IMG/VR virus record: IMGVR_UViG_3300029258_004075 | Length of the DNA: 20,000 nt | Reading direction: 5' to 3' (one strand) | Origin: an uncultured virus (IMG/VR IMGVR_UViG_3300029258_004075) | Taxonomy: Duplodnaviria > Heunggongvirae > Uroviricota > Caudoviricetes | Program-made: the position numbers and the translations under genes | Notes under the pieces: generated by a model | The model's input: only the letters and a program-made list of their open reading frames with translations | Database searches by the model: none | Told to the model about the DNA's origin: nothing | Part shown: one piece after another, positions 1-18,757 of the stretch | Layout of the letters: the number at the start of each line of letters is the position of its first letter | Numbering within the stretch: the stretch's first letter is position 1

Positions 1-10
1 AGTAAATGTA

Positions 11-511
11 ATGTTGTTCTTATTAATATTCAATGTAGTTGTTAGTCTTGTAGGTGGTCTTAACATTTACAATATGGGAATGTCAAGTTCAGAATATGAC
101 TACGAAGAGTTAGCAGATGAAAGCACATCACCGCAAAGAGACGAAGATTCTGGTGGAGGATTATTTTCTGCTTTTACAGATGCTAACTTTGGTTTTAATA
201 CATTCTTTATTGGAGGAACAACTGTTGCCATTCTGATTGGTGGTGCTATAGCCGGTGCTACAATAGGTGGACTTGTAACAGGAGGGCGCTTAAAAACATC
301 AGAAGGAGCAGCATACGGTTTCTTTGGTTCTGTTATGACCATAACTTTTATTAGTTCCTATTCTATATTATGGACAATAGTAGAACAGATTCCAGATGAA
401 ATACAAACAGGAGCAGCAGTGGCAGTAGGTCTGTTCTTAGCAATAACTGGCTTCATGTTTATACTCGGATTCATGCAATTAATTGTAGGAGGAATAGCAC
501 AATATCAATAA
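11..511 (+). CDS. Multi-pass membrane protein (3-4 hydrophobic segments, acidic loop); putative minor virion membrane protein; 5' end may lie before the window
   Basis: ORF track. Hydrophobic Gly/Ala-rich helices. The frame is open upstream of the ATG to the window edge. Confidence 0.75.
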   Translation: MLFLLIFNVVVSLVGGLNIYNMGMSSSEYDYEELADESTSPQRDEDSGGGLFSAFTDANFGFNTFFIGGTTVAILIGGAIAGATIGGLVTGGRLKTSEGAAYGFFGSVMTITFISSYSILWTIVEQIPDEIQTGAAVAVGLFLAITGFMFILGFMQLIVGGIAQYQ

Positions 512-831
512 TAGCCTCAATATATTGTTTCATTGTTAGCGTAGCAGTAGACTACAACTTTACCAACTTTACTCTTGGTGGTATTATACGCTTTGCATTT
601 GACCCATACTATGCCATGTTTGGTAATTTGTCATGGGGAATCATATTAGGTTTCATAGGAGCAGGCATTTACGCGAATAATAGAAGTCTTGGTACAACAG
701 GAGTTTATCTTATACTTGTTGGTATTTTCTTTAGTATCATATTTCCAATTTGGTTCATATACTTGTTTGGTCTTCTATTATCATTTATCCTGACAACAAT
801 CTTTTATGTGACATTTGTAAAGAGTAGATAA
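508..831 (+). CDS. Small membrane protein (~107 aa if ATA start at 508; ORF track calls 616-831)
   Basis: The frame is open from 400. The extension IASIYCFIVSVAVDYNFTNFTLGGIIRFAFDPYYA looks protein-like (hydrophobic leader, two NFT sequons). AGGAGG at 487-492. ATAA overlaps the upstream stop. Three TM-like segments follow. Confidence 0.7.
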   Translation: MIASIYCFIVSVAVDYNFTNFTLGGIIRFAFDPYYAMFGNLSWGIILGFIGAGIYANNRSLGTTGVYLILVGIFFSIIFPIWFIYLFGLLLSFILTTIFYVTFVKSR

Positions 832-848
832 AAAGGAGAAAGGATATA

Positions 849-1118
849 ATGTTAGAAAGTGTATTTATTACAATGCTGGCAATGGGGTTCATTTCTTTTG
901 TGTTAGCTATAGAAAGGGACTCATTTATTTACTCAGCAATATCAATGCTGTTTTGGATAATTGTTATGGCAGGTCATCTTTATGTAGAAGTGCCTGGAGA
1001 CACATACTATTACGAAGTTGCAATGTTTCCCCTATCATTCGGTATGATAATGCTTAATGTCATTTGGTTGATAATCCAGTTTATGGTTAAGAGAAATAGG
1101 AAAAGGTATATTCGGTAG
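849..1118 (+). CDS. Three-TM small membrane protein with basic C-terminal tail
   Basis: AGGAGAAAGGA upstream; three hydrophobic segments; tail KRNRKRYIR. Confidence 0.8.
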   Translation: MLESVFITMLAMGFISFVLAIERDSFIYSAISMLFWIIVMAGHLYVEVPGDTYYYEVAMFPLSFGMIMLNVIWLIIQFMVKRNRKRYIR

Positions 1119-1127
1119 GTAAATACC

Positions 1128-1424
1128 ATGAATAAGATTATTTATCCATTGCGCCTAAGTACGCCAGAGCAAACTAAGAAAGCAATCCAGAGGTTGGTCC
1201 AACAATTAAAGAAAGATAATATTGCTATTTGTTCTCATCCTAGCGCCGTTCAACTTTTCTCCCGTAATATTCCAAAGTGTTATAAGGACAACGAAGTGAT
1301 ACTTATATCCAAGACAGTTGGTTTAACAAAGAGAAAAACTAAAAATATCATTTATCTAAAACCGGAATATACACTAAAGATAAACCGTGACTTTAGTTTT
1401 CGCATTACACCTAAACATAAATGA
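1128..1424 (+). CDS. Basic soluble hypothetical protein (98 aa)
   Basis: AGGT upstream; 9 nt after the previous stop; Lys-rich; no recognisable motif. Confidence 0.6.
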   Translation: MNKIIYPLRLSTPEQTKKAIQRLVQQLKKDNIAICSHPSAVQLFSRNIPKCYKDNEVILISKTVGLTKRKTKNIIYLKPEYTLKINRDFSFRITPKHK

Positions 1425-1534
1425 TTTGAAATATCGTCTTATTTCCTTCAAAAATCTTTAACTTGGCTATATGGAAGCGCACTACATATACCAAAACTTA
1501 AAGATTGTACTACGTATATATTGTGTATGTGTTT

Positions 1535-1586
1535 GTGAGAGAGGAACGTTCAGTTCCTCCTCTCTACACAAGAGTTCCTCTCTCAC
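1535..1586. repeat. Inverted repeat with two alternative right arms
   Basis: GTGAGAGAGGAAC (1535-1547) is the exact reverse complement of GTTCCTCTCTCAC (1574-1586). An imperfect copy GTTCCTCCTCTC lies at 1553-1564. Confidence 0.8.
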
Positions 1587-1737
1587 CTTTGAGTGTGTTA
1601 GATTTCAACTAAAGTTGAAAGTGTTTTTGGTTGCCCTTCCTTTTCTTCCATGCGTTAAATACCAATTATATATAGATTTTTTATGTAAGATATCAAGTTC
1701 TTATCCTAGAGTATATACTAACATACATTGAAGTACG

Positions 1738-1795
1738 TTTATATATGAGTAAGGCACATAGTAGTATACAAGAATTAAAAATTTAAAAGGAGGTG
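1738..1795 (+). promoter_or_regulatory. Archaeal TATA-box promoter and strong Shine-Dalgarno for the putative major coat gene
   Basis: TTTATATA at 1738-1745 in the largest intergenic gap; GGAGGTG at 1789-1795, 5 nt before GTG 1801. Confidence 0.65.
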
Positions 1796-1800
1796 TAGAG

Positions 1801-2058
1801 GTGAAAGCAAGCTATGGCTTTATCGACCCAGGTGCAATCATGGGCGTTGTCGTTTCATTAATCATTCTTGCCGTTGGTGTGTTTGCATTCTTTGTAACAC
1901 TCAGCGAAGTTGAGAATGTCACAGACAGTGAAATGATAGAAAACGCTGTTGGTAATGTTGGCGAAACTGGTAACAGTGTGTTCAACATCATCGGAATTGT
2001 GCTGATTATCGGTGCAATTATGTCCATCGTGGGTCTCGTCTATAACTACGTTCGATAG
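1801..2058 (+). CDS. Putative major coat protein of spindle-shaped-virus type (two-helix hydrophobic hairpin)
   Basis: 85 aa. Two long hydrophobic helices are joined by a polar loop with an NVT sequon, and the protein ends in a short YNYVR tail, which matches fusellovirus VP1/VP3-type architecture. It has its own promoter, strong SD and downstream hairpin. A VirB2/TedC-like pilin is an alternative reading. Confidence 0.6.
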   Translation: MKASYGFIDPGAIMGVVVSLIILAVGVFAFFVTLSEVENVTDSEMIENAVGNVGETGNSVFNIIGIVLIIGAIMSIVGLVYNYVR

Positions 2059-2086
2059 ACGCGAGAAGCCTCACACAATAAAATAG

Positions 2087-2107
2087 GTGTGGTGTTCTGC
2101 ACCACAC
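2087..2107 (+). terminator. Stem-loop after the coat gene
   Basis: GTGTGGTG-ttctg-CACCACAC, a perfect 8-bp stem followed by T-rich sequence. Confidence 0.6.
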
Positions 2108-2143
2108 AATTCTTATATTATTTAACTTTGGAGGAAACAAATA

Positions 2144-2458
2144 ATGGATGAAACAAGTACGCCTTTTTTGGTGTTAACAGTAACACTTGTAATGATTATA
2201 TTAGCAGTAGGAACCTTTGCGTTCTACGTTACAGTTAGTCAGACAGAACAGATTGTTGGTTCTGGAGTAACTAAGACAGAAACATTTACGGTGGATAATC
2301 CGAGCGAGGACCAGACATTTAGCATGAGTTTTCGTCCAGATTCCACAACAATAACAATACAACAATATACTGGTTTCGGATGGATTCCGGTTGATTCGAC
2401 TTACATCTCTGTCGATGGCAGAGATATCACTATAGAAGCAGAGGGTATGTTAGGATAA
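2144..2458 (+). CDS. Coat-protein paralogue, N-terminal half (helix 1 plus small beta domain)
   Basis: IILAVGTFAFYVTVSQTE versus IILAVGVFAFFVTLSEVE in 1801-2058; GGAGG SD; no second helix. Confidence 0.8.
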   Translation: MDETSTPFLVLTVTLVMIILAVGTFAFYVTVSQTEQIVGSGVTKTETFTVDNPSEDQTFSMSFRPDSTTITIQQYTGFGWIPVDSTYISVDGRDITIEAEGMLG

Positions 2459-2468
2459 GTGAACAATT

Positions 2469-5135
2469 ATGAGCCCAAAAAGAAAGAGATTAATTAGAGA
2501 TACAAAAGCAAAAGTTTTACCACTCACTATAGTAATGATATTAATAGTAGCAAGTTTAACTGCTACATTTGTAATTTTACCACAAGACAACATAATTGTA
2601 AAAGCATCAAGTCCAACAGTTTCCACTAACGCAACGACTTCTATAACAACAACAACTGCTACATTAAATGGATACCTTAGTAATGATGGTGGTGAAAATT
2701 GTAGTGGTTGGTTTGAATGGGGTGAAACTGATAGTTATGGAAACACAGTATATATTTTAGAAGATGATACCGAAGACTCTTTTTCTTCTTCTGGAGACCC
2801 TCCTAATTCAGGAAGCCTTGCTAATATGCATGATGAAGATTGGGGTACATCTGGAGGATTAAACTATGAAGCAGATGATGATGCAGGAGAAAAAACAATA
2901 ACTGTGTATGAAGAGTATGATTCAGTTCCTTTAGTAGATAAATTTGGAGTTACCGTAAAATTTGCCCAATGGGTGGTGAGTGGGGCTGGTTCAACTGTCC
3001 ATGATTTTGAGTTCTTTATTTATAATTTAACCTCATCAGAGTGGGAATCGAAAGTCCAGAGTAGTTATGGAAACAATGTGTATATAGAAGCTTTTGGAAT
3101 ATTGAACGCTAGTCATTATATAAATACCACTAACAATAATCAAGTAAAAACAAAAGTTTATATGAGAACAGTTTCTGACGACAACTTTATACTGCCTAAA
3201 AGTGGACACGTTGAATACTATGAAAGTAAATTAACAAGTTTTATTCCTACAGAAACATCTTTTAATGCGACATTAACTGGTCTTGACCCTGGTACGACCT
3301 ATCATTATCGTGCTGTTGCTAACAACAGCGACGGAACCTCATATGGTTCCGATATGACATTTACTACCGGTGGACTTCTCTCAGTGTCAACGAATGCTTC
3401 TTCAAATGTTGATGCGGATAGTGCAACATTGAATGGCTATTTATCTGATGATGGTGGTGAAGGTTGTATTGTTAGTTTTGAATATGGTTTAACTGATAGT
3501 TATGGGAGTACAGTATATCCATATCAACCAGATTTGAGTAGTGGCGAGCACACAATAGATAGTGGTTCTATTAATGCTCAGAGTATGTATGCCTGTGATG
3601 TAGATTCTGATGGTGATATTGATGTCCTTAGTGCATCATATTCTGATGGTTATATTACTTGGTATGAGAACGACGGAAGTGAAAGTTTTACGCAACATAT
3701 AATAGCAGATGATTTTAGTTATGCTCGTTCTGTTTATGCTATTGATATTGACTCTGATGGTGATATTGATGTTTTAGGTGTTTCTTATTCTGCTGGTGAA
3801 ATTACCTGGTGGGAGAATGATGGAAGTGAAGGTTTTACTGAACATACGATAAATGGAAGTTTTAATGGTGCTTGGGATGTGTATGCTTGTGATGTTGATT
3901 CTGATGATGATATTGATGTGTTGGGTGCTGCACTTGCTGGTGAAATTACCTGGTTTGAAAATGATGGTTCTGAGTCTTTTACAAAACATACAATTAATGA
4001 TTCTTTTGAAGAGGCATATGATGTGTATGCCACTGATGTTGATGGCGATTCTGATATTGATGTATTAGGTGCTGCTTATAGTGGTGATGATATTACTTGG
4101 TGGGAAAATGATGGTTCTGAATCATTCACTGAGCATACGATAGACGGGTCTTTTGATGGTGCTTATGAGGTGTATGCGTGTGATGTAGATGGTGATAATG
4201 ATATTGATGTATTGGGTGCAGCATATTCTGATGGTGAAATTACCTGGTGGGAGAATGACGGGAGTGAAAGTTTCACTAAGCATACGATAGATGCTTCTTT
4301 TGATGGTGCCCGCTCTGTTTATGCTTGCGATATAGATGGTGATGGTGATATTGATGTCCTTGGTGCAGCTTTTAGTGCTGATGATATTACGTGGTGGGAG
4401 AATGATGGTAGTGAGTCTTTCACGGAGCATACGATAGAAGGTAATTTTAATGGTGCTCAGGGTGTCTATGCCACTGATGTTGATGGTGATGATGATATTG
4501 ATGTTCTTGGTGCAGCATATTTTGATGATGAGATTGTTTGGTGGGAGAACAATCAATCAAAAAATAGTCCATTAGAATTTTCTTATTCGCTTACTGGTAT
4601 TTCTCCAAGTACAACATATCATTATCGTGCCGTGGCAAATAATTCTGTGGGAGAGTCTTATGGTTCTGATATGACGTTCACTACACCAGAGTTTAGTATT
4701 AATGGTCTTGATGCTAATACTCGCTTTCCCTTTTCTGGTTCTCCAGGTACTACTGTTTGGTCAACAGGAAATATTACAATGAATATTCATACTAATCTGT
4801 CTGGAACTTCTCTCAGCTGCACTGACATATACCTTGATTTCAAAGATGGTATAGACACAGATATCAATCAAAACCAATTCAGCATTGCTGTTATTAACAC
4901 ATCTGATGGAAGTTGGGCAAGTGTTTCTAGTGTATTAGACGTAACAGGTAACATGACTATCGATTCAACAACTTGGGCATCTGGTCTTAGTGCTGGTTGG
5001 GCTCACGGCACTAACCCGTTCCCAATTGATGATGTAAATACTACTATTGCAGTTCGAGCTCGTGTTTCTATTCCTGCAGGAAAAGACCTTGGAACATATA
5101 CTGCTGATGATTGGGAAGTTACATGGGACTATTAG
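2469..5135 (+). CDS. Secreted adhesin: two FN3-like domains each carrying an insert (the second insert is a 7-blade FG-GAP/VCBS propeller), plus a C-terminal Ig/pilin-like domain
   Basis: Signal peptide ending IVKA. Two copies of ATLNGYLSxDGGE...DSYGxTVY / LTGxxPxTTYHYRAVANNS...SYGSDMTFTT. Seven DxDxDxDIDVL...WxENDG repeats. Confidence 0.9.
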   Translation: MSPKRKRLIRDTKAKVLPLTIVMILIVASLTATFVILPQDNIIVKASSPTVSTNATTSITTTTATLNGYLSNDGGENCSGWFEWGETDSYGNTVYILEDDTEDSFSSSGDPPNSGSLANMHDEDWGTSGGLNYEADDDAGEKTITVYEEYDSVPLVDKFGVTVKFAQWVVSGAGSTVHDFEFFIYNLTSSEWESKVQSSYGNNVYIEAFGILNASHYINTTNNNQVKTKVYMRTVSDDNFILPKSGHVEYYESKLTSFIPTETSFNATLTGLDPGTTYHYRAVANNSDGTSYGSDMTFTTGGLLSVSTNASSNVDADSATLNGYLSDDGGEGCIVSFEYGLTDSYGSTVYPYQPDLSSGEHTIDSGSINAQSMYACDVDSDGDIDVLSASYSDGYITWYENDGSESFTQHIIADDFSYARSVYAIDIDSDGDIDVLGVSYSAGEITWWENDGSEGFTEHTINGSFNGAWDVYACDVDSDDDIDVLGAALAGEITWFENDGSESFTKHTINDSFEEAYDVYATDVDGDSDIDVLGAAYSGDDITWWENDGSESFTEHTIDGSFDGAYEVYACDVDGDNDIDVLGAAYSDGEITWWENDGSESFTKHTIDASFDGARSVYACDIDGDGDIDVLGAAFSADDITWWENDGSESFTEHTIEGNFNGAQGVYATDVDGDDDIDVLGAAYFDDEIVWWENNQSKNSPLEFSYSLTGISPSTTYHYRAVANNSVGESYGSDMTFTTPEFSINGLDANTRFPFSGSPGTTVWSTGNITMNIHTNLSGTSLSCTDIYLDFKDGIDTDINQNQFSIAVINTSDGSWASVSSVLDVTGNMTIDSTTWASGLSAGWAHGTNPFPIDDVNTTIAVRARVSIPAGKDLGTYTADDWEVTWDY
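3546..4553 (+). repeat. Seven tandem ~144-147-bp FG-GAP/VCBS coding repeats
   Basis: Seven D[VI]D[SG]DxDIDVL motifs spaced 48-49 aa apart, with strong DNA-level similarity (GATATTGATGT..., TGGTGGGAGAATGA). Confidence 0.9.
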
Positions 5136-5146
5136 GAGAAATAATC

Positions 5147-6520
5147 ATGCGTAAAACAATGATATTAATAAGCTTTTTATTATTCATTATACTATCATCA
5201 TATAGTATAAGTGCTGCGACATATACAGAGACATTTGGTGGCTCAGTTGAAGTTTCTTTTCCTGTTCAACCAAATCCACTTACATGGAGCAGTGAACCAA
5301 GTCCGGATAGTAGTTCTGCAATAAGTATGACAGCAACAACTGCGACAAGTGTCAACACGCCGTTAAGTTATCAGTTTAACGAGACATCTGGAAATGCAGG
5401 AGCAACAGATAGTGATTGGCAATCTGCTGATACAACCTACACTGATAGTGGTTTATCTGAAAATACACAATATACCTATAAATGCCGTGCAAAGGATAGC
5501 AGCGACAATATTGGCAATTGGTCATCTGAGGTAAGCGTTTATACACATTGTGATGCACCGGGAGACGCCGAGGTAACTATTCACAGTAGCGGTCTTGATT
5601 GGATAAAAGTTTATGTAGATGAACCTAATAACCCCAGCACTGCAGAGTGTTACATAGATTGCATTTCTGGTGGAGCAACAGATAGTGGATGGATATCTAC
5701 AAGAGAAAATAGTCATTTTTATCATAACTTTACAGGTTTGTCACAAGGAACAGAATATTGTTTTAAAGCAAAATATCGCAACGGAGATGATGTTGAAACA
5801 TCCTTGAACAGTAATGGGGAGTGCTATACTATTCCTGAACCACCAGAGCCACCAACAGATTTCACAGCAACAACACAGACTGACACAGAGATAGACCTTT
5901 CTTGGTTGCAAGGAATAGGAGCAACTCACACCTACATCGAATATAACAGCACCGGAACATGGGAACGAGGCGACGGAACAGAACTCTACAATAATACTGG
6001 TGAATCATTTAGCCATACTGGTCTGTCACCAGACACGCAGTATTTTTATCAAGCATGGAGTTATAACAGTACAACTGGTTTATGGAACGATACATATGCG
6101 AGTGATAGTAACACCACAAATGCACAACCACCAGTCAATACATCAGTTTCGCCAACAACATGGATAGGTGGTTCAAACAATGTAGAAACATCAATCAGAG
6201 AGAACTTCACATTCTGGCAGAATGGAACATCAAGCATCGATATAACCATAGGAGTCAATTCAACAAACTTCACATTTCAAGACTACGCAACATGGTCCAC
6301 AGGAGGATTCAATCAAATCTGTGCGAACTTCACCACAGACACATGGTCAACAGAAACAAACATTGCAGACACATCATATCCTTTTTCAACAGTCCTAAAA
6401 TCAGGCTTCACAACGGGCAATTTCAACTTTGGTGTTAGAATATGGATGCCAAAAACTCTTAGCAAAGAATCGCAAGAAGAAGAATTTGAAATTGTTCTTG
6501 CTGTAAGCGAGAGTACATAA
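5147..6520 (+). CDS. Secreted FN3-repeat protein with C-terminal Ig/pilin-like domain
   Basis: AGGAGA SD before ATG 5147 (ORF track starts at TTG 5111). Signal peptide ending ISA. FN3 motifs GLSENTQYTY, GLSQGTEYCF and GLSPDTQYFY. Confidence 0.85.
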   Translation: MRKTMILISFLLFIILSSYSISAATYTETFGGSVEVSFPVQPNPLTWSSEPSPDSSSAISMTATTATSVNTPLSYQFNETSGNAGATDSDWQSADTTYTDSGLSENTQYTYKCRAKDSSDNIGNWSSEVSVYTHCDAPGDAEVTIHSSGLDWIKVYVDEPNNPSTAECYIDCISGGATDSGWISTRENSHFYHNFTGLSQGTEYCFKAKYRNGDDVETSLNSNGECYTIPEPPEPPTDFTATTQTDTEIDLSWLQGIGATHTYIEYNSTGTWERGDGTELYNNTGESFSHTGLSPDTQYFYQAWSYNSTTGLWNDTYASDSNTTNAQPPVNTSVSPTTWIGGSNNVETSIRENFTFWQNGTSSIDITIGVNSTNFTFQDYATWSTGGFNQICANFTTDTWSTETNIADTSYPFSTVLKSGFTTGNFNFGVRIWMPKTLSKESQEEEFEIVLAVSEST

Positions 6521-6596
6521 TAACGGACAGGGCGTAATATAAAATCCTACCCTGTAAGGTAAAAATAACAAAACAAACGAAAAGAGGTAAAAAAAT

Positions 6597-7091
6597 ATGA
6601 AAAAAATATATGCAATACTGGTATCATTTATGCTTATAGCAGTATTATCGATGATACCAACAAGCTACGCAGACCAAACAGTTACCGGCGAATTCACAGC
6701 GAATGGAACGCTCACTGTGACAGTAAACAACACAAGTCCAAACTTTGATACTATCAATGTGAACGAAAACGCAACCGTCTCGTTAGAAGTAAACAATACA
6801 GGAAGCGTACGTGCAACGGTAACCCAAGACCAAGCAGAACATCACACAGGAAATCTTGAAATTGGAACAGTAGGCGGTCTTACCGAAGACCAATATAGTG
6901 TCGAAATGTCTAACGATACTGGTGTTTCTTGGACAGACATTGGACAAACCGTTGAAACATCTATATCAGATGACCTTGCTACTGGTGCAACACAAGCCTA
7001 CGAACTACGAGTAAATGTTTCTTCTACACTCACCTATCAATCAGACGCAAATCAATTCTATGCCAATGTAACCGTAGCAGCATACAGTTAA
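6597..7091 (+). CDS. Secreted 164-aa beta-sandwich; putative major fibre/pilin subunit (TasA/CalY- or WxL-like)
   Basis: GAGGT SD. Signal peptide ending SYA. Mature N-terminus TVTGEFTANGTLTVTV and the motif LEVNNTGSV recall the TasA/CalY motifs FxxGTLDL and xNxGSL. Confidence 0.65.
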   Translation: MKKIYAILVSFMLIAVLSMIPTSYADQTVTGEFTANGTLTVTVNNTSPNFDTINVNENATVSLEVNNTGSVRATVTQDQAEHHTGNLEIGTVGGLTEDQYSVEMSNDTGVSWTDIGQTVETSISDDLATGATQAYELRVNVSSTLTYQSDANQFYANVTVAAYS

Positions 7092-7104
7092 ATGAGTGAA
7101 GCAC

Positions 7105-7779
7105 ATGAAATACAAACTATTTGCAGTGACAGCATTAATGTCACTGCTATTTCTTTCGACACTGATGCCATCAGTAACACCTTCAGCAATATCAATTGGT
7201 CCTGCTATAGGTGTTCACACGTTTAATGACTTGAATGCAGATATTCTTGTCTCGGAAGGAAGTTTTTCTGTAAACAATAATGAGGACACTACAATTATAG
7301 TGCGTATTTCAACGCAAACTAACATAAAATCACAAGACCTTGACCACGAAACAGGAGAACCTAGAACACATACAGTTAATAAAACAGTTGTATTTCATGA
7401 ACAACCAAAAGATTGGATTACATTTGAACAGACATCCATAACAATACCACCAAACGAACAAGGTACTGTTGATTATACACTAAGAATACCTATCAAAGAC
7501 CTCCCTTCGTATGTCTCTAAAGAAGATGGTTTCCTATCATATATAACTGTTCAAGCAGAGGAAGAAGAGACAAATGCAGCAGTATCAATAAGTGAGCGGT
7601 ACGATTTTAAAGTATTTACAATTTTTGGCGCAAATCTTCCTTCAAGCAAGACCCTTGTGCCATTTAACCCATTCATTTACATAGTACTTATAAGTTTATC
7701 ATTATCATTATTAATTACATACGTAAATCAAAAATATCATTTATTCAGAAAGATAAAACAGAAGGCATTGAGACAATGA
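7105..7779 (+). CDS. Membrane-anchored DUF916/WxL-interacting- or PapD-like Ig protein; putative fibre assembly factor
   Basis: Signal peptide, then AISIGP...FSVNN...DWITFEQTSITIPPNEQGTVDYTLRIP...YITV. C-terminal TM helix and basic tail. GTG 7096 is an alternative start. Confidence 0.65.
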   Translation: MKYKLFAVTALMSLLFLSTLMPSVTPSAISIGPAIGVHTFNDLNADILVSEGSFSVNNNEDTTIIVRISTQTNIKSQDLDHETGEPRTHTVNKTVVFHEQPKDWITFEQTSITIPPNEQGTVDYTLRIPIKDLPSYVSKEDGFLSYITVQAEEEETNAAVSISERYDFKVFTIFGANLPSSKTLVPFNPFIYIVLISLSLSLLITYVNQKYHLFRKIKQKALRQ

Positions 7780-8384
7780 AGAAAATTATATCAATAGTTG
7801 TAATTATTATACTATTAACAACATTTTGTTATAGTGTTTCATCCGCTAGTATAACAGGCTCATTTACAGCATCTAATCCTTTCTTTACTTCAATAAGCAA
7901 CGAATACCCATCAAATGAGTCGACTGGAGTAGAAAGACCTCCTACGAATATTTCAGCGAATATCACTGGGAACGACGTAACGGTATACTTCTACTTTGTC
8001 AATATGTCTGGTGTAACAGACACATACACGCAATTATATCACCAAGAAAACGTTACCAATGAGATTGTGGAAATGACAGCTCTTGATAGTTTTGGGATTG
8101 GAAATGAGTTCGATTGGGGTAACACAACGTACACATGGAGCATCAATATATCGGATGAATTTGGTTGGACAAATGAGAGTTTTTGGTATAAGACAGAAGG
8201 AATAGCGTCAGGAAGCGATGCACGGTTAGATGTCAATAATGATGTTACCGTTGACATATTCGATGTTACTGTCATTTACAATTGGTATGATGAAGAAAAT
8301 TCATACAATGGATATTTTGATGTGAATGTAGACACACTAATTGACATCTTCGATTGTAGAGATGTTTATAATGGATATAATTAA
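7776..8384 (+). CDS. Secreted protein: N-terminal pilin-like strand, Ig-like domain and C-terminal dockerin-like domain
   Basis: ATGA overlap with the upstream gene. Signal peptide ending SSA, then SITGSFTAS. Duplicated Ca-binding loops DVNNDVTVDIFD and DVNVDTLIDIFD. Confidence 0.8.
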   Translation: MKKIISIVVIIILLTTFCYSVSSASITGSFTASNPFFTSISNEYPSNESTGVERPPTNISANITGNDVTVYFYFVNMSGVTDTYTQLYHQENVTNEIVEMTALDSFGIGNEFDWGNTTYTWSINISDEFGWTNESFWYKTEGIASGSDARLDVNNDVTVDIFDVTVIYNWYDEENSYNGYFDVNVDTLIDIFDCRDVYNGYN

Positions 8385-8399
8385 AAGAAGGAATAAGAA

Positions 8400-8615
8400 A
8401 TGTATGAAATAAGTGTTGGACCAAAGGGTAAACGCATTACAGTGGAAACATGTGATACAAAAGCAGAAGCCAACAAAATCTTACGAGAATTAAAAAAACA
8501 AAGGAAATCAAAATTTAACTATAATCCCCGAATCAAAAAAATATCATCAGAAAGAGAAAAGGAAATAAGAAAGCGAACAAAACACCTTGTTGAAAGAACA
8601 AAATCCCGCAGATGA
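8400..8615 (+). CDS. Small highly basic protein, putative nucleic-acid binding
   Basis: 71 aa, K/R-rich; TKAEANKILRELKK helix; fills the gap between two large genes. Confidence 0.7.
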   Translation: MYEISVGPKGKRITVETCDTKAEANKILRELKKQRKSKFNYNPRIKKISSEREKEIRKRTKHLVERTKSRR

Positions 8616-8632
8616 TTAATGAGGAATAAAAA

Positions 8633-11485
8633 ATGAGAGGAAAAAAAGCAGTAGGAATAATATTAGTTTGCTTAATGCTGGTAATTTCAATGCTATTCGT
8701 AAATGCAACGCAATTTACTGAAGATACAAATAATCCTATTTATGGTGCACATCTTGGTGATGGAAAAGCATACTATCCATCAGTGGTTTATGATTCTAAT
8801 CAATTCTCCGGTCACGGCAATACTTCATACTATAAGATGTGGTATGACCCCGGAGATGGAACACCACGACTTCTTCTTTCAGATGATGGTACAGATTTTG
8901 GTTCTTTTTCAGATTCAATAGCAATGACAAATTTAAGTACCGCATATCATCCTTCAGTTATCTACAACTCTGATGGTATTGATGGTACTGGTTATTATTA
9001 TAGAATGTATTATTGGGATGGTTCAACAGACCTTTCAACTCGTGTCGCTGAATCAACTGATGGTATCAACTGGGAGAACGACCAATTAATAACACAAAAC
9101 ACAACATATCATCTTCAAGAAACTGATGATGGGTTTTGGCATCAACATTATGGTCCTGGTAATGTGTATTATAATTCATCTGCAACAGACTCTGGCAGTA
9201 ATCCTTGGAATTATACATTCACTATGACATTTGACACATCAAGTGCTAATATCCTTGAACCTACGTATGGATACGAACATACAGGTCTTGCCTATTCATC
9301 AGATGGTTTCAACTGGACAAGATATGGTGATGAACCAATACTTACAGCAGATAATGACTCTGAATGGGATGCTCATTATTCTTATCATGGTGACATCATA
9401 AAAGTTAAAGAAAATGATTGGCGTATGTGGTACTCTGGTGGAGATGATGATGAAGACGGTGGAAAATATTATGCGGAAGGTGTTGGTGAAGCATATTCAA
9501 CGGATGGGTTAACATGGTATAAGAGTGATGACAATCCAATACTTCACTTTAGCGACAATCAATCAGACTCAAGCCTGGATTGGAGAGGTTACAGAACATA
9601 CACACCTAACGTAATTCGTAACGGAACATACATAATGATGTATTATACTGGTGATGATGGTGATAACCGTTCAATTGGTTATGCTGATGCATTTCTTACA
9701 GAGACAGAAGTAGAAATTATTGTTTCTCCATCTGTGATTGAAGTAGGAGATACTTTCAATTTTACTGAGTTTATTAATCAAGATGTTTCAATCCAAGCGT
9801 GTAAATTTACCGTGAACTTTACAACTAATATGAATGTTACTAATGGCTGGGTTGGAGAAGACCCGCTTTGGGATGATACATTCTTTACACTTGGAACTAT
9901 CTACAATGACACAGGAGACGGAACAGGAAGTGTGAATTATACTCAAAATGGTATTACCCATACAACAGAAAACGGTTCTCTTGCTGTCTTTAATGCAACA
10001 GCAATGAGCGTCGGACCATGTTACATCAATCATACGTATGTGAAAATAGGTTCTTCTGACCACGGAGATTGGTATATAGAAGATGTAGTTACTATTGATG
10101 CTGCTTTCACCATTTACCCACATAGTCCTTCTGGTCTTACAGCAACAATGACTACAGATACAAGAATAGACCTTTCTGGTTTTTCACCTGGTGATGGTGG
10201 AACACACACCGTTATTAGAAGAGCAACAGGTTCTTATCCTGCGACACCACAAGCAGGGACAGAAGTATACAATGGAACAGGGTCTTCTACTAGTGACACA
10301 TCATTAACTGCAAACACAACATATTATTATAGAGCATGGACATATAATACAACACAAAATGTGTTCAGTTATAATTATCAACAAGACACAGAAAAAACAA
10401 ATGAATATCCAATTAACGATAACCCATCACCCGCAGACGGTGCTGAAAATGTTGAACTAAATCCTGATTTATCAATTGACGTTTATGATTATGATGGACA
10501 AGACATGGATGTATCATTTTACACGAATGCGTCTGGGTCTTGGGTTCTTATAGGTTCAAATATGTCAGTATCTGATGGAACATATCAACAAAGCACATCA
10601 CAATTTGATTTATGGGAAACTGATTACTGGTGGAGCGTTAATACAACTGACGGTATCAATTGGAAGAACAACACATACACATTTGAAACACTTCCAAATG
10701 AACCAGCAACAGCAGAAAACCCAACCCCACATCAAGTTAATAAAGTAAACATATCACCTGTATGCGAGGTAGACATACTTGACAAAGAGCGGTCAACATC
10801 TATTATCGTTACATGGCAAGAGAACACAACGGGTTCATGGGTGACCAGAAGCGTAAACACATCAGTTGGTGATAACGAAACAGTTTCTTGGGTGTTTGCA
10901 GAGGCGGACACAATGGATACTGATTATTGGTGGCGTGTTTATGTTGATGATGGAATAAATAATGTATCATACGGACCTTGGAACTTTACAACACTATTCC
11001 TTAACGTTTCAAATGAATATCCGCTCAATAACGATGCGGAAGTAGAAAGAGAAGCAAATCTTAGTGCAGACTGTGATGGTTATGGTATGGATGTTTATAT
11101 TTATTTCTATAATATGACACCGAAAGTTCACACATGGTCTCTTGTTGATTCATGGACAGAAGAAAATTCAGATAGATTTGAAACAAATAGAGAATATGGA
11201 AACGATTTCAAATGGGGAAATACAACGTACACGTGGTCAGTAAATATCACTGACGGAACGAATTGGGTGAACAAAACATACACGTATGTCACAGAACAAC
11301 AAACAGCTGAAGGACATAATGCACGAATGGATGTTGATGCTGATAATACCCTAGATATATTTGATGCAAGAGACACATATAATAATTACAACCAAGGGCA
11401 TGAATTTGATGGAATATATGATGTTGATGAGAACGATGACATAGATGTGTTTGATTGTAGAACTATATATAATGAATATAATTAA
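8633..11485 (+). CDS. Secreted multidomain protein: five-blade GH43/32/130-like propeller, cohesin-like domain, FN3, Ig-like repeats and C-terminal dockerin-like domain
   Basis: GAGGA SD. Signal peptide ending VNA. Repeated PSV...Y[KR]MWY...AxSxDGxxW...NPIL blades. Cohesin-like region ~9713-10120. Dockerin-like loops DVDADNTLDIFD and DVDENDDIDVFD. Confidence 0.85.
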   Translation: MRGKKAVGIILVCLMLVISMLFVNATQFTEDTNNPIYGAHLGDGKAYYPSVVYDSNQFSGHGNTSYYKMWYDPGDGTPRLLLSDDGTDFGSFSDSIAMTNLSTAYHPSVIYNSDGIDGTGYYYRMYYWDGSTDLSTRVAESTDGINWENDQLITQNTTYHLQETDDGFWHQHYGPGNVYYNSSATDSGSNPWNYTFTMTFDTSSANILEPTYGYEHTGLAYSSDGFNWTRYGDEPILTADNDSEWDAHYSYHGDIIKVKENDWRMWYSGGDDDEDGGKYYAEGVGEAYSTDGLTWYKSDDNPILHFSDNQSDSSLDWRGYRTYTPNVIRNGTYIMMYYTGDDGDNRSIGYADAFLTETEVEIIVSPSVIEVGDTFNFTEFINQDVSIQACKFTVNFTTNMNVTNGWVGEDPLWDDTFFTLGTIYNDTGDGTGSVNYTQNGITHTTENGSLAVFNATAMSVGPCYINHTYVKIGSSDHGDWYIEDVVTIDAAFTIYPHSPSGLTATMTTDTRIDLSGFSPGDGGTHTVIRRATGSYPATPQAGTEVYNGTGSSTSDTSLTANTTYYYRAWTYNTTQNVFSYNYQQDTEKTNEYPINDNPSPADGAENVELNPDLSIDVYDYDGQDMDVSFYTNASGSWVLIGSNMSVSDGTYQQSTSQFDLWETDYWWSVNTTDGINWKNNTYTFETLPNEPATAENPTPHQVNKVNISPVCEVDILDKERSTSIIVTWQENTTGSWVTRSVNTSVGDNETVSWVFAEADTMDTDYWWRVYVDDGINNVSYGPWNFTTLFLNVSNEYPLNNDAEVEREANLSADCDGYGMDVYIYFYNMTPKVHTWSLVDSWTEENSDRFETNREYGNDFKWGNTTYTWSVNITDGTNWVNKTYTYVTEQQTAEGHNARMDVDADNTLDIFDARDTYNNYNQGHEFDGIYDVDENDDIDVFDCRTIYNEYN

Positions 11486-11496
11486 AGGTGCAAAAT

Positions 11497-13782
11497 ATGA
11501 AAAAGGCAAGAACTAAAACAAAAAGCACACTCCTTATGCTAATATTATCGCTTTCATTGATAATCTCTAGTATTGGTGTACGAGCAGCAAATGAACCAGA
11601 TTTATATCTCTATCTAAATGGAACTACAAGCACATCTGCTAACATAACAATCGGGGACACATTTAATTTCTCTGAATATATTGACCAGAATGGAGATGAT
11701 GCGCAAGCAGTAAAAGTATCAGTAAATTTCACTACTAATATGAATGTAACAAGTGGAGAAGAAGGACCAAATAATATATGGGGTTCTACCTTTCTTACAA
11801 TAGGGACAATAACAAATGATACTGGAGATGGAACAGGTTCAGTCAACTACACACAAAATGGTGTAACCTGTGAAGTAGACGATGGTGAAATTGCAAGATT
11901 TAATGCTATTGGCACTGAAGTTGGTGTTGCAACTATCAATTGGACATATATCAGATTGGACGATTGTGATGTAAACACGTTAGATGTTTTTATGCATAAT
12001 GCGACAGTTTTCATTCATCCAGAACATCCTTCTGGTTTCTCAGTTATATCAGAAACGACATCTAGTATAAACACATCATGGTCTTTTGCTCCTTATAGTG
12101 GTGTAGATAATTACGTTCTTTACGGCAGTACAACAGACTCTCCTACAGACCGTGACCCTGCAGAAGAACTTTACAACAGTTCAGACCTATCAACAGTTTA
12201 TTATAATCATACAGGACTTGACCCAGGACAGAAATGGTATTACACTTTGTGGGGATACAATGCCACAGAAAATATGTATTCAAATATATATGGAGAAAAG
12301 AATGCAACGACAGGAATACCAGATTATCCACCAGAAATTACCCTTATTAGTCCTTCCAACACAACAACACCAAAACTTGAATATACAACATCAGTAGACC
12401 TTCAAGTATCAATAGATGACCCAGAAGATGGCACGGTAACAACCTACATTGAATGTGATGGAAACAACGATACATTTAGCGGTGAAGGCACAAAAACAAG
12501 TACAGTGTCAGGACTCTCAGCAGGAACATACACATGGTATGTTAATTCAACAGATGGAGAATCTTATAATCGTACATGGTATCAATTTACAATAAATGCA
12601 AAACCATCAGGTGGCGGTGGTGGAGGGGGATATAATCCGACCCCATCAAATGGAGCACCCTCAGTCAGTATAACATCTCCACTATCAGTAAATGTAACTG
12701 ATGCTGACGGTGACGATATCACAGTAAAATTCTTTTGGCAAAACAATACTCAAATTGGCAGCGACCAAACAATCGTTGGTGGAGGACCTGAAACCGTATC
12801 GGTTTCACCATCTCTAACACACGGCGTCGAATACTTCTGGTACGTCACAGCAGCAGATGGGACTGACACCACAACAACAGATACTTGGTCATTCAATACA
12901 ACAACATTAGGAATCGACATTGATGCAGCATGGACAGCCGTACCAGCAAACAATACCATTTACAAATGGGTAAATGTCACCAATACAGGTTTAGAGAACC
13001 TCACAAATGTAGATATTTGGGATAGACCATCAGATTACTTATTACTCGATTCATATAACCATGGTGCCGACTTTTCAGCAAACGGACACTATGAATGGAC
13101 AATCCCATACCTTAACCACACAGGCGAGAATACCTATTACAACATTACAATGTGGTTTTCATTAGATAGTTTGCCAACCAACAATCAATGCTTCTACAAC
13201 CTTGTCAACGTATCACATCTTAGCCAAACAGATTCAGTGAATCTAACAGGGTTATGCTATTCATACACAGCAAACAAATCATCAAACATCACATATACTA
13301 ATGAAACAATAACGGAAGTGGGCTGGACAATCGAAATAGAGAACACAGGAGACTTTACACTAAACAATGTCTATGTAAATGAAACATACGACGATTGCGT
13401 AAACTATTCTTCATCAACCATTGCCCCAGAAAATCCAGGCACAGACACAGTATTCTTGATACCATCAATTGCACCATCAGCGAAATCAGAACTTATTATA
13501 AATACATCTATCACACCAGAATGCCCAGAAAATGGAACACTGCTTTATAATAATGCAACAGTGAATACATCAGAAACAGCATCGTCGATAACACTTTCAG
13601 AGTATACTCCTTATGGAGGCTATACAACGCAAGTAAAAATTAGGTATAGTTTACACATGAGTGATGTACAAACGTATGGTGATAGCGTTCTTTCTGTTTT
13701 GGGTGTATTACTTATCATTGGCGCAATATTACTTATTGTTGGTGTTGTTACACGTTATGGTTTTCTCGGTGGTAGCGAATAG
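11497..13782 (+). CDS. Membrane/coat-anchored scaffold: cohesin-like, FN3, Ig-like and two DUF11-like domains, with a C-terminal coat-protein helix 2
   Basis: AGGTG SD before ATG 11497. Signal peptide ending VRA. Cohesin-like domain paralogous to that of 8633. Poly-Gly linker. NTGxxxLxNV motifs. C-terminal GDSVLSVLGVLLIIGAILLIVGVVTRY. Confidence 0.85.
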   Translation: MKKARTKTKSTLLMLILSLSLIISSIGVRAANEPDLYLYLNGTTSTSANITIGDTFNFSEYIDQNGDDAQAVKVSVNFTTNMNVTSGEEGPNNIWGSTFLTIGTITNDTGDGTGSVNYTQNGVTCEVDDGEIARFNAIGTEVGVATINWTYIRLDDCDVNTLDVFMHNATVFIHPEHPSGFSVISETTSSINTSWSFAPYSGVDNYVLYGSTTDSPTDRDPAEELYNSSDLSTVYYNHTGLDPGQKWYYTLWGYNATENMYSNIYGEKNATTGIPDYPPEITLISPSNTTTPKLEYTTSVDLQVSIDDPEDGTVTTYIECDGNNDTFSGEGTKTSTVSGLSAGTYTWYVNSTDGESYNRTWYQFTINAKPSGGGGGGGYNPTPSNGAPSVSITSPLSVNVTDADGDDITVKFFWQNNTQIGSDQTIVGGGPETVSVSPSLTHGVEYFWYVTAADGTDTTTTDTWSFNTTTLGIDIDAAWTAVPANNTIYKWVNVTNTGLENLTNVDIWDRPSDYLLLDSYNHGADFSANGHYEWTIPYLNHTGENTYYNITMWFSLDSLPTNNQCFYNLVNVSHLSQTDSVNLTGLCYSYTANKSSNITYTNETITEVGWTIEIENTGDFTLNNVYVNETYDDCVNYSSSTIAPENPGTDTVFLIPSIAPSAKSELIINTSITPECPENGTLLYNNATVNTSETASSITLSEYTPYGGYTTQVKIRYSLHMSDVQTYGDSVLSVLGVLLIIGAILLIVGVVTRYGFLGGSE

Positions 13783-13818: not shown

Positions 13819-13834
13819 ATATAAAGTGATTGCT

Positions 13835-15322
13835 ATGATAAGGAAATCAAATATGTACGATTTAGGCATTAGTCTACTCAGAAGACCTACTAGAACTTGG
13901 CTGAAAGACAAGAAGGACCTTACATATCCTGAAGCAAGAAGAATACACGGAATAGACCCTTTCTCCGACATTGACCAAGACCGCGTTCCTAACTGGAGAG
14001 ATTGTCATCCTTTCGACCGCTCTCGCCAAGATGACCCTTTACAACCTACATCACTTGTACCAAAAAATAATTTTATTTCAACAGACCTACGTCCTCCTTA
14101 CACTGGAGATATAGAACAAGAATATCGCGGGGTTGAAAATGCGAAAAGAGTAGGATATGATAAATTACCTCCTCAACCGAGTACACCCAAAGAAACACAA
14201 AAAGGACAAACTCCTAACTACACTGAAGGTTACTATGTGTATGCTCTTCTCGATGGAAAAGAGTCTGGATATGATAAAGATTATTGGACTAACTTTGGTA
14301 ATGTATCAGTAGAAGAAGCCCCTCAAAAATTACAACAGTATAAAAATTATCCATATGTAAAAAAAGTCTTCCTTGATAAAAGACCAAATCTTGAAAAAAG
14401 ACTTAATGCAAAACTCCGTGTCAAACAAGGAGCGTCCGGTGTCAAAAAAGTAGCAAAGCATATTTGGGACGAAGCAAGAGAATATAGTGATAAGCAGAAA
14501 TTTGGTGAACATATAAAAGAAGGATTACAAGTATCAGGTGAAGGAAGACAATGGATAAATCAAACCCGCTCCTACATCACCGGCTCTAGAGGAGCATTCA
14601 ATCCTCCATGGGACACCAGCAAGACTTCCGAAGTATCAAGAAGCGCAACAATTGGCTCTGGTGCTTGGGCACGACAGTCCAGTGAACCCCAACAACCTCT
14701 TCAAGGCTACTACTTACAAAACCTTCAATCAACTCCAAAACAGTCAATGCGCAGAAAACCAATCGGCTCTTCCACAATTCCAGAGCGACCATCCATTGGA
14801 GGAATAAACACATCTAGAAGTATGAGCAGAAGAACATATCAATCACGACCTCGCGTACAAACATATGATATGAACGAACCAACAACATACGATGAAGAAA
14901 CCATCCTTCCACGCCGTTCCATATCAGACCGTGCAGCAGACCTATCAACCTCGGTCAATTGGCAAGACCCAAGCAGAGAACCATCATCATTAGCGCCCAA
15001 GGTATTTCCACCAACAGACACTCCTTCCATTTACGGCTCGGTATCGCCGTTTGCACGACAAGACCGCAAACTCCCATCTGCCGGAATACCAGGAACCAAT
15101 GTCCAACGTTATTCTCCTGTCTCCGCCGACCAAGCAATACTCCATAAACCCCTTGTCGGAGCTCCAGACATAGCAGAATTCGGCACCCCACGTGGCTCCC
15201 GTGGCTTCGGCTTAACAACCCCACGAGAATATCAAAATTACGAGAAGCGACCACGAGGATTAGGACTCACAGGAGGTTTTCCTCCATTCCATAACAGAAC
15301 AGGTATGCTCACTAGAAGATAA
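13835..15322 (+). CDS. Basic, largely disordered P/S/T/R-rich protein with N-terminal D-rich tag
   Basis: Long ORF; start is GTG 13826, ATG 13835 or ATG 13853. Motif DIDQDRVPNWRDCHPFDRSRQD at 13967-14032. No signal peptide. Confidence 0.85.
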   Translation: MIRKSNMYDLGISLLRRPTRTWLKDKKDLTYPEARRIHGIDPFSDIDQDRVPNWRDCHPFDRSRQDDPLQPTSLVPKNNFISTDLRPPYTGDIEQEYRGVENAKRVGYDKLPPQPSTPKETQKGQTPNYTEGYYVYALLDGKESGYDKDYWTNFGNVSVEEAPQKLQQYKNYPYVKKVFLDKRPNLEKRLNAKLRVKQGASGVKKVAKHIWDEAREYSDKQKFGEHIKEGLQVSGEGRQWINQTRSYITGSRGAFNPPWDTSKTSEVSRSATIGSGAWARQSSEPQQPLQGYYLQNLQSTPKQSMRRKPIGSSTIPERPSIGGINTSRSMSRRTYQSRPRVQTYDMNEPTTYDEETILPRRSISDRAADLSTSVNWQDPSREPSSLAPKVFPPTDTPSIYGSVSPFARQDRKLPSAGIPGTNVQRYSPVSADQAILHKPLVGAPDIAEFGTPRGSRGFGLTTPREYQNYEKRPRGLGLTGGFPPFHNRTGMLTRR

Positions 15323-17015: not shown

Positions 17016-17366
17016 ATGCAAACGGACTTGAGAGAATTTGGTCTTAAAGGAAGAGATGTTAATTATAGAGTTGTAATTCCAATTTCTGTTGAAGAAGAAA
17101 CAGGAGCAGAAAATGCATCCAATCAACTATTTTTCATAGATATGTTAGAAAGAAGATTATTCAATGAAAAAGGAGTATCATTTGATACTGGCTCTGCAGT
17201 AGACCGAGAAGGCAATGTAAGAGAAAGACATTGGGAATTGGACTGGTCACTAAGAGGACGATACTCTGCAGACGAAATTATGAGATATCTAGAAAAACAA
17301 GGTGTCCAATTCAAAGTAGTATTAAAACCTCGTCAAGATGAAAACGATTGGAGAGAGAAGAGATAA
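17016..17366 (+). CDS. Hypothetical protein (116 aa)
   Basis: ORF track; ends 1 nt before the next ATG. Confidence 0.75.
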   Translation: MQTDLREFGLKGRDVNYRVVIPISVEEETGAENASNQLFFIDMLERRLFNEKGVSFDTGSAVDREGNVRERHWELDWSLRGRYSADEIMRYLEKQGVQFKVVLKPRQDENDWREKR

Positions 17367-17367
17367 T

Positions 17368-18228
17368 ATGAAATTTCCAGATTATTGGGGAATAAAGAAA
17401 AACAAAATATCATTTAATTTAGATACAGACAGAGATGGAGTAAAAGATAAATTTGACTGTCAACCTTTTAATTTCTGGAAGCAAGATTCACTTTCTTATG
17501 AAAAATTCTTACAACAACTTGAACAAAACAAGAAAAATAAACACTTCATAGAAATTATAGGTGAATACGGTATATATAAAATGAAAGGACCAGACGGAAA
17601 GCAATATTACTATGCAATGAATTTAAATACAGGTTTAACAATTTTAAACAATTATTCATCTTTACAAGAAATTATAAATGAAGTTAAAAAAGGAACACCA
17701 CAACAGCTTATACAGCAAGGCATGGCTCCTGGCGACACAAGAACTGTATTTCAAGATATGCAAAGGATAGAAAAATACAGAACAAAATATGGTGATAAAG
17801 CTTTCAGATTTCAGAGACAGCCAGGACAAGTAGTACTTGACATTGGTGCTGGTTCACATCCAGACGTAAGAGCAACACATGCAATTGATAAAGCAAAACC
17901 ATATATTAATTTTCCAGATATTAATTACACATATGGACATGATTTAAGTAATCCTTCAATTACACTTCCTTATCCTAATAACAGTTTTCATGTTGTTGTT
18001 AGCTATGGTGCAATTGGAAGAAATTTTGAAACACCACAATTATATAAAGAAATCTATCGAATATTAACACCAAGTGGATATTATGAGACAAATGGGTGGT
18101 GGAATAAGCAAGGATATCAACGAGGAATTCAATGGATACAACAAGCAGGGTTTAGAAATATTCAACAATCATCTTATTATGATGAGCAATTAGGAGAAGA
18201 AATACCTATTTGGAGGTCTTTTAAGTGA
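17368..18228 (+). CDS. D-rich-tagged protein with a middle domain and a C-terminal class I SAM-dependent methyltransferase domain
   Basis: Start MKFPDYWG matches 18758. Tag at 17422-17487. Methyltransferase motifs VLDIGAG, LPYPNNSFHVVVS and EIYRILTPSG. Confidence 0.85.
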   Translation: MKFPDYWGIKKNKISFNLDTDRDGVKDKFDCQPFNFWKQDSLSYEKFLQQLEQNKKNKHFIEIIGEYGIYKMKGPDGKQYYYAMNLNTGLTILNNYSSLQEIINEVKKGTPQQLIQQGMAPGDTRTVFQDMQRIEKYRTKYGDKAFRFQRQPGQVVLDIGAGSHPDVRATHAIDKAKPYINFPDINYTYGHDLSNPSITLPYPNNSFHVVVSYGAIGRNFETPQLYKEIYRILTPSGYYETNGWWNKQGYQRGIQWIQQAGFRNIQQSSYYDEQLGEEIPIWRSFK

Positions 18229-18740: not shown

Positions 18741-18757
18741 AAAGAGGAGATAATAAT

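Follow-up and report, generated by a model that had tools for sequence, protein, structure and literature searches.

Here, we report on a 20,000-nucleotide (nt) stretch of DNA from an uncultured virus (IMG/VR record IMGVR_UViG_3300029258_004075), hereafter called the window, in which a small putative coat protein, p85, and two downstream proteins, p104 and p764, carry related membrane helices. The plus strand carries every plausible gene of the window according to our open reading frame (ORF) survey, and all features given below are on that strand. The p85 gene (1801..2058) encodes an 85-amino acid (aa) alpha-hairpin membrane protein and putative major capsid protein (MCP), with helix 1 at residues ~10-36, a variable loop with an NVT sequon at residues 37-56, and helix 2 at residues ~57-83. 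The p104 gene (2144..2458) encodes an MCP-like helix 1 (residues 7-34, nt 2162-2245) and then a six-stranded beta domain (residues 44-104, nt 2273-2455), and the protein ends without helix 2. The p764 gene (11488..13782) encodes 764 aa with a signal-like N terminus, an ectodomain, and a C-terminal tail module; its start is either GTG at 11488 or ATG at 11497, and the Atlas record begins at residue 4, i.e., at 11497. Its ectodomain consists of a cohesin-like part (residues 33-190), fn3/immunoglobulin (Ig)-like domains, and a DUF11-like domain (residues ~596-710), and the tail module comes last, with the putative donor strand TTQVKIRY (residues 713-720, 13624..13647) and an MCP-like helix 2 anchor (residues ~727-756, 13666..13755), after which a short basic end, cytoplasmic or inner, completes the protein. 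Between p104 and p764 lies an intervening block (2469..11485) of seven genes for secreted or anchored surface proteins, namely p888 (FG-GAP/fn3), p469 (fn3), p164, p227, p202 (dockerin-like C terminus), p71b, and p950, the last being a paralogue of the p764 core plus a p202-like end. Hydrophobic segments number two in p85 and one, N-terminal, in p104; p764 has its signal-like N terminus plus one segment at the extreme C terminus.

The first-pass annotation of this DNA had claimed that helix 1 of the 85-aa protein recurs only in 2144-2458 and helix 2 only at the C terminus of the 11497-13782 ORF, and both claims were confirmed by BLASTP, by shuffling, and by a profile search of the window. With BLASTP, p85 and p104 share 15 of 31 residues over helix 1 (E = 1e-08), and p85 and p764 share 16 of 34 over helix 2 (E = 0.045). 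A profile built from 34 p85 homologues and run over the six-frame ORFs of at least 50 aa recovered p85 in full, the helix-1 part of p104 (independent E value, iE, 9.8e-07), and the helix-2 part of p764 at residues 723-757 (iE 2.4e-06); the window has nine further proteins with hydrophobic segments, and the profile matches none of them. Could this be nothing but the compositional likeness of transmembrane helices? Such helices do share composition, and the p85-p764 BLASTP E value is just 0.045. Significance against shuffled transmembrane helices had been set beforehand as a test, and local BLOSUM62 scores were compared with 5000 composition-preserving shuffles per comparison. Helix 1 against the p104 N terminus scores 80 (shuffles 24.6 +/- 4.7) and helix 2 against the p764 tail scores 82 (shuffles 26.2 +/- 5.0), and 0/5000 shuffles reach the real score in either match. 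The cross pairs are at background, i.e., 403/5000 for helix 1 against the p764 tail, 3062/5000 for helix 2 against p104, and 1962/5000 for helix 1 against helix 2. Together with the recurrence of the pattern in 14 loci described below, these values already contradict an origin by chance, to which we give next to no weight.

The same division is found throughout the family. Our survey covered 82 sources, i.e., the window and 81 loci (some of them duplicated), with 2509 ORFs of at least 50 aa that were searched with p85 and p104 profiles. One of these loci, L002, is not an independent relative because it is 100% identical to window positions 1-12055. At a domain iE below 0.01, 130 ORFs have both helices, 68 have helix 1 only, and 21 have helix 2 only, and no other helix pattern occurs among the 2509 ORFs. 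Nearly all of those with helix 1 only measure 93-124 aa and lie directly downstream of coat genes (three are cut coat genes); the helix-2-only ORFs range from 205 to 1351 aa, with the match invariably at the extreme C terminus. With a tail profile, the number of distinct tails rises to 22, from 14 distinct loci, and the tail module is the same in all 22: a strand of the form T-x-hydrophobic-x-I/V-x-Y/G, then ~8 residues, then helix 2. All tailed proteins have a signal-like N terminus, as read by eye. An exhaustive p104 search returned 46 representative clusters, 41 of which are stand-alone proteins of 81-115 aa with helix 1 and the beta domain, and the order of coat gene(s) and then a p104-type gene is found in 63 sources.

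The spacing of the two partner genes bears on how this arrangement should be understood. The tailed gene starts within 10 nt of the p104-type stop codon, or overlaps it, in 10 of the 14 loci with a tailed protein (L001, L006, L016, L035, L036, L043, L047, L053, L061, and L080), a tight adjacency that fits co-translation of the partners. Wider gaps are found in L040 (1.4 kb), in the first pair of L047 and in L065 (3.4-3.6 kb), in L037 (4.9 kb), and in the window (9.0 kb), and the intervening adhesin block is absent between the partner genes in most relatives with a tailed protein. The first-pass annotation had proposed that one ancestral minor coat gene was interrupted by the cassette of surface protein genes. 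This is an oversimplification: the family commonly has the pair in split form, and since the partners abut in 10 of 14 loci, the 9-kb gap is a peculiarity of this lineage rather than the event that made the split. The interruption story is to be replaced by a two-gene socket-and-tail system in which the partners are, in this genome, separated by 9 kb. A single p104-type gene is followed by genes for two tailed proteins in seven loci; with two different large proteins thus bearing the tail module, p104 resembles a shared socket more than one half of a unique gene.

Two further arrangements were noticed around the p104-type genes. The p104-type beta domain without its helix (profile positions ~30-98, iE 1e-7 to 2e-3) lies inside large proteins upstream of coat genes (L002 5612-8182, L027 482-2794, L036 2-2578, L044 3-3092, and L046 3202-7293). 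Proteins of ~205 aa adjoin the p104-type gene in L060 (1016-1633) and L074 (10310-10924, the same as L076 5502-6116); they have an N-terminal hydrophobic anchor and no helix 2, and their last residues, '...PTIRYQ(A/Y)Y', are similar to the donor strand. The neighbouring p104-type protein of L074 has an N terminus that is signal-like, not MCP-like. This arrangement possibly represents a variant pair, anchored at the opposite end.

Homologues with both halves in one ORF had been proposed as a check of the split, and they were found. The 185-aa protein P0144 contains helix 1, the beta domain, the strand 'TTTKIKVVY', and helix 2 in a single chain. Its similarity to p104 is high (E = 2e-17), with p104 aligning to P0144 residues 25-114; both helices of p85 align to it colinearly (E = 4e-4 and 2e-3), and the p764 tail does so weakly, also colinearly (E = 0.24). 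A second single-chain case, P0167 (212 aa), is 79% identical to P0144, and P0168, the cognate coat protein on its 2.1-kb contig, agrees almost completely with P0144 in helix 2. The order of helix 1, beta domain, last strand, and helix 2 that had been assumed for the ancestral gene therefore exists as one ORF in P0144 and P0167. A different fused form is a 492-aa ORF, identical in L014 (8440-9918) and L019 (12765-14243), with helix 1, an ectodomain of ~390 aa, and helix 2; its helices match the profile at iE 7e-11 and 3e-10, and its N terminus is coat-protein-like. The strand is absent from it, as is a p104-type gene from its locus. This ORF is a natural loop-insertion display form. After its helix 1 there is a 'TETFETD..DPSD' remnant of the p104-type first strand. 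The direction of evolution may have been either fission or fusion. Scans of the viral_contigs collection with P0144 and P0155 (a 1188-aa ORF discussed below) gave no loci. Please note that three long repeat proteins (P0121, P0142, and P0161) are among the 46 p104 clusters. The two inspected, P0142 and P0161, are repeat adhesins that have only a 'TKTETFTV'-like motif in common with p104, and they are not fusions.

Structural models bear on the strand between the beta domain and helix 2. The AlphaFold model of P0144 was computed with alignment A5, in which the tails were left out, as MAFFT had set tail helix 2 onto helix 1. The model (mean predicted local distance difference test score, pLDDT, 79.3) has a helix at residues 23-49, six strands within residues 56-109 (pLDDT 94-97), a seventh strand at residues 125-131 in a block of pLDDT 85, and a helix at residues 147-174. 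The part aligned with p104 (residues 25-114) covers the six strands, and the seventh strand is beyond the end of p104 in that alignment. This seventh strand would have to pair with the beta domain, because DSSP calls a seven-residue strand and all other strands of the model are in that domain. Structure matches of P0144 to Ig-like phage tail and neck domains (Z 6.3-7.6, middling values) span residues ~51 to 131-136 and therefore include the seventh strand; matches to helical hairpins span residues ~17-180. In the model of the p764 C terminus (residues 580-764, alignment A6, mean pLDDT 82.6), the DUF11-like sandwich extends to model residue 130 and helix 2 is confident (H148-177), and between these confident parts the segment GGYTTQVKIRYSLHMSD is predicted as coil with pLDDT 58-62. 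The strand thus appears orphaned in p764 and placed in P0144, i.e., it would fit only where a p104-type domain is present. A hydrophobic N-terminal helix followed by an Ig-like domain is also the gross architecture of the archaeal pilins treated in PMC13700489, and one may ask whether p104 is an archaeal type IV pilin-like protein whose likeness to p85 is convergent. We regard this as very improbable: no pilin family was matched in Pfam, a conserved basic-Gly/Ala cleavage motif before the helix was not seen by eye in an alignment of 42 sequences (A1), and the MCP N-terminal motif and helix 1 are kept almost letter-perfect in many members of the p104 family.

The strand also co-varies with p104. 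Strand identity averages 47% between two tails of one genome (eight pairs) and 23% across genomes (223 pairs), a difference reached in 2 of 10,000 label permutations; the same-genome excess is absent for helix 2 (39 versus 41%) and for the upstream domain end (17 versus 22%). Strand similarity correlates with that of the cognate p104 beta domain over the 22 tails (Mantel r = 0.54, 0/10,000 permutations), and the corresponding values are 0.07 for helix 2 and 0.17 for the upstream part. Among 13 homologous large tailed proteins, the strand/beta-domain correlation is 0.66 (0/20,000), as against 0.41 for the protein's own adjacent domain; the partial r is 0.60 after the adjacent domain is removed (2/20,000), and the reverse partial is 0.24. 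A cysteine (Cys) is found in the first strand of the cognate p104 for all six tails with a strand Cys and for none of the 16 tails without one, and in L047, which has one Cys and one non-Cys pair, each tail adjoins the matching partner. L001 and L016 have pairs of the Cys type, and the p104 of the window is of the non-Cys type. That TTQVKIRY belongs to the p104 beta domain, as the first-pass annotation had suggested, is thus backed by two AlphaFold models and by co-variation; the p764 model, the co-variation, and the Cys pair indirectly suggest that the strand may be supplied by another chain. A separate observation concerns L043, where both tails have 'HHC/NHC' after the strand and the p104-type protein has an extra Cys ('VDC') before the first strand; its close relative L053 is without both extra Cys. 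L043 possibly has a second matched cysteine pair.

Alternatively, p104 and p764 could be independent anchors, each inserting alone via a coat-derived helix with no mutual binding, so that their likeness to p85 reflects packing against p85. Helices of the MCP type are indeed present in both proteins, co-variation between helix 2 and p104 helix 1 is absent (r = -0.13), two tails share one p104 in seven loci, and the 492-aa fused ORF shows that the helices work without strand or beta domain. We nevertheless consider independent anchoring unlikely, because it leaves unexplained the conserved strand, which the p764 model leaves unpaired, the co-variation of that strand with the p104 beta domain together with the Cys pair, the tight gene adjacency, and the fused P0144 with its modelled seventh strand.

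Whether this anchor belongs to a virion depends on the identity of p85. Its family comprises 702 proteins at E <= 0.01 among 718 candidates, with 75-100% identity among the matches listed (120). In an alignment of 34 members, both helices are invariant almost residue by residue, and the loop is variable and rich in NxT/S sequons. Tandem copies of the p85 type, two to four in number, occur in 42 of the 82 sources. Searched with the MCP alignment, the genome_contigs collection, in which each bacterial or archaeal species is represented by a single genome, yielded no match, and the metagenome collection yielded 173 relatives, 80 loci being retained from them. A viral-contig record exists for one relative. 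In the Atlas, p85 lies closest to viral clusters, and among the clusters with names the closest are VP1_VP3 (0.88) and His1_capsid (0.84), feature scores that we take as leads only, and PHROGs gave no match. The MCP of spindle viruses is characteristically ~80-100 aa long with two hydrophobic helices and a short exposed loop; p85 fits this description, and the fused homologue is likewise modelled with a hairpin. According to the account of SSV19 in PMC9351363, VP1 (84 residues) forms a hydrophobic alpha-hairpin lattice in which the loop points outward and both termini inward. Sequence searches link p85 to no capsid family, and it is by analogy to this VP1 that we read it as a putative coat protein of the spindle-virus type. 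L047 and L048 are the two ends of one 92,906-bp metagenome contig whose first 12,447 bp are repeated at its end with 99.97% identity, indicating a circular or terminally redundant replicon of ~80.5 kb. Such a replicon would be large for a virus with a coat protein of this kind. The element is probably an archaeal virus of the spindle-virus type from saline habitats.

A non-virion role should be weighed here, in which p85 is a two-helix membrane protein (holin-like or membrane-remodelling) and p104 and p764 are located on the membrane of the infected or host cell. Such a role is consistent with the weak, sub-threshold Pfam matches of p85 to generic two-transmembrane families, a holin family included, and with the absence of a match to capsid families; contigs reach up to 200 kb, and a peptidyl-tRNA hydrolase gene adjoins the MCP genes in L019. 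It accords poorly with the invariant helices and the variable, sequon-rich loop of p85, with the tandem copies, with the occurrence in metagenomes and not in genome_contigs, and with the viral contig and viral Atlas clusters, and we consider it improbable. Even in that case, p104 and p764 would still be read as a split anchor, with a membrane replacing the lattice.

In the reading that we favor, and to which we assign a probability of roughly 60%, p104 and the p764 tail each contribute one half of a coat-protein paralogue and come together again, TTQVKIRY providing the strand that is missing. Briefly, the virus-like element, at least ~80 kb in size, would have p85 as its small alpha-hairpin coat protein, and p104 with the last ~50 residues of p764 would be a second, split copy of the coat hairpin. 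p104 would insert with its N terminus inside, supplying helix 1, and its six-stranded Ig-like domain would face out. p764 would be exported, and its C-terminal helix 2 would span in the sense opposite to that of the p104 helix. TTQVKIRY would then dock in trans as the seventh strand of the p104 domain, setting helix 1 beside helix 2 as a coat-like hairpin, and the resulting p104/p764 pair would take the position of a coat protein in the lattice or envelope, so that the p764 ectodomain (cohesin-like, fn3, and DUF11-like) would be displayed outside. p104 would be a shared socket, serving up to two different tailed proteins in related genomes. The expected topology fits the basic residues at the inner ends, the NxT/S sequons in the MCP loop, and the signal-like N termini of the tailed proteins, as judged by eye. 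A broader statement can be made tentatively, i.e., that in these widespread viruses with circular genomes of ~80 kb the two-gene socket may be universal, with interchangeable adhesins plugging in via strand and coat helix and with a disulfide lock in some lineages.

Several points weigh against this reading. The small fused forms amount to two clusters, on contigs of at most 2.1 kb. The 1188-aa P0155 has the order tail, helix 2, helix 1, and beta domain in one ORF; as a Rosetta-stone fusion it deserves little weight, being a singleton on one contig with no second example. No tailed protein was seen, in the DNA covered, in 48 of the 63 sources with a p104-type gene, most of which are short contigs or have an ORF cut at the 10-kb flank, and L076 has none in the 7.7 kb downstream of its p104-type gene. 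The co-variation tests leave shared ancestry in, and the cysteine pair may represent as few as one or two events. The proposed pairing of the seventh strand in the P0144 model is derived from DSSP and the alignment ranges, and the argument for pairing of the helices is one of geometry because helix 2 and p104 helix 1 do not co-vary. As to the coat protein, VP1_VP3 (PF06281) and His1_capsid (PF25665) were hit by none of the 34 p85 members at E <= 10 in Pfam, and a profile search of the PDB gave nothing relevant for p85 (an unrelated match at E = 0.15). The spindle-virus morphogenetic module includes an AAA+ ATPase, according to a preprint (bioRxiv 10.1101/2025.02.15.638363). No such ATPase was found in Pfam searches of 24 window ORFs or, at E <= 1e-5, among 40 upstream ORFs of L002, L019, L073, L081, and L027, scans that covered a small part of a replicon of ~80 kb or more.

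Strand donation and coat-helix anchoring each have precedents. Chaperone-usher pili, a bacterial, periplasmic, and polymer-forming donor-strand system, contain an Ig-like domain that is short of its last strand and is completed by a strand of another polypeptide. The proposed pair would resemble them in a putatively incomplete Ig-like domain and in the strand from a partner, which models and co-variation suggest here, and differs from them in that it would be embedded in a membrane or lattice with one helix per partner. Engineered phage display places a foreign ectodomain on the membrane helix of a filamentous-phage coat protein; here the ectodomain would likewise be held via a coat helix, although naturally, by two chains, and in a different virus architecture. 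As to the attachment of adhesins to the tiny-hairpin coats of lemon- or spindle-shaped archaeal viruses, we know of structural detail for one fusellovirus tail only. Sequence comparison gave no relation of p85 to an SSV19-type coat (PDB profile search and Pfam VP1_VP3). The tailspike VP4 and the adaptor B210 of SSV19 are large, glycosylated host-binding proteins with C-terminal hydrophobic helices on which VP1 stacks, and each of these tail proteins forms its own Z-shaped three-helix bundle, sited only at the sevenfold tail (PMC9351363). The two systems would have in common a small hairpin coat in the same orientation and host-binding proteins held by C-terminal hydrophobic helices, and the proposed anchor differs in being a coat-like hairpin on two polypeptides joined by an external beta domain. 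Adnaviruses have minor structural proteins derived from coat proteins (PMC13700489). These are similar in that a duplicated coat module with an extra domain joins the coat; unlike the two genes with a bridging strand proposed here, they are single polypeptides. The literature searched, with subscription papers and bioRxiv supplements outside the search, gave no account of a coat hairpin split across two genes and bridged by a beta domain.

If the proposed pairing is true, a split coat anchor joined via strand exchange would be a second, different solution for attachment, and it would amount to a portable tag of ~50 residues plus a socket of ~100 residues. This would be a natural, modular, split phage display, in which any secreted ectodomain that gains the ~50-residue tail plugs into the lattice. 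It would explain the free swapping of host-binding proteins, would predict, for these uncultured viruses, which of the large proteins the virion carries, and could be put to use at high salt for display or tethering on the surface of membranes or lattices.

The displayed part of p764 had been described as a cohesin scaffold, a description that the fold comparison favors and Pfam does not. In the Atlas predicted model, p764 residues 33-178/190 match cohesin clusters at template modelling scores of 0.76-0.79; three of these matches meet the bar for naming, and we take them as a lead only. The cohesin-like parts of p764 (11584-12057) and p950 (9737-10150) match no Pfam family at E <= 10, Cohesin (PF00963) included. 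p202 matches Dockerin_1 (PF00404) at E = 0.004, with 17.7 bits against a cut-off of 22.9, i.e., below the Pfam cut-off. p950 is similar to the p764 core (E = 8e-47), and its end (11249-11482) to p202 (E = 8e-35) over a C-terminal dockerin-like double repeat, which in p202 lies at 8181-8381. Because of the cohesin-like fold of p764 and the dockerin-like ends of p202 and p950, it is possible that a lattice-anchored cohesin recruits dockerin-tagged partners; this would recall a cellulosomal scaffoldin, with a virus coat and not a cell wall as the anchor. D-rich double repeats similar to the ends of p202 and p950 terminate many large proteins in related loci.

Some minor observations on the surrounding genes are as follows. 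Directly upstream of p85, an 86-aa ORF (1471-1731) is Cys- and Leu-rich and of low complexity and is probably no gene, and a 370-nt stretch upstream of p85 may contain the promoter of the structural operon. The peptidyl-tRNA hydrolase gene (Pfam E = 4.6e-48) lies directly upstream of the coat genes at L019 8979-9530, equal to L014 4654-5205, and L073 contains a C25 (gingipain-type) peptidase gene at 3152-5215. Downstream of p764, three consecutive window proteins, p296, p171, and p226 (17338-19438), have in common an N-terminal motif of the type F-N-L-D-T-D-R-D-G-x-x-D-x-x-D-C-Q-P-F-N, of which p498 (13826-15322) has a looser copy; p296 and p171 also have a methyltransferase-like core. This motif may be a shared targeting or calcium-binding module.

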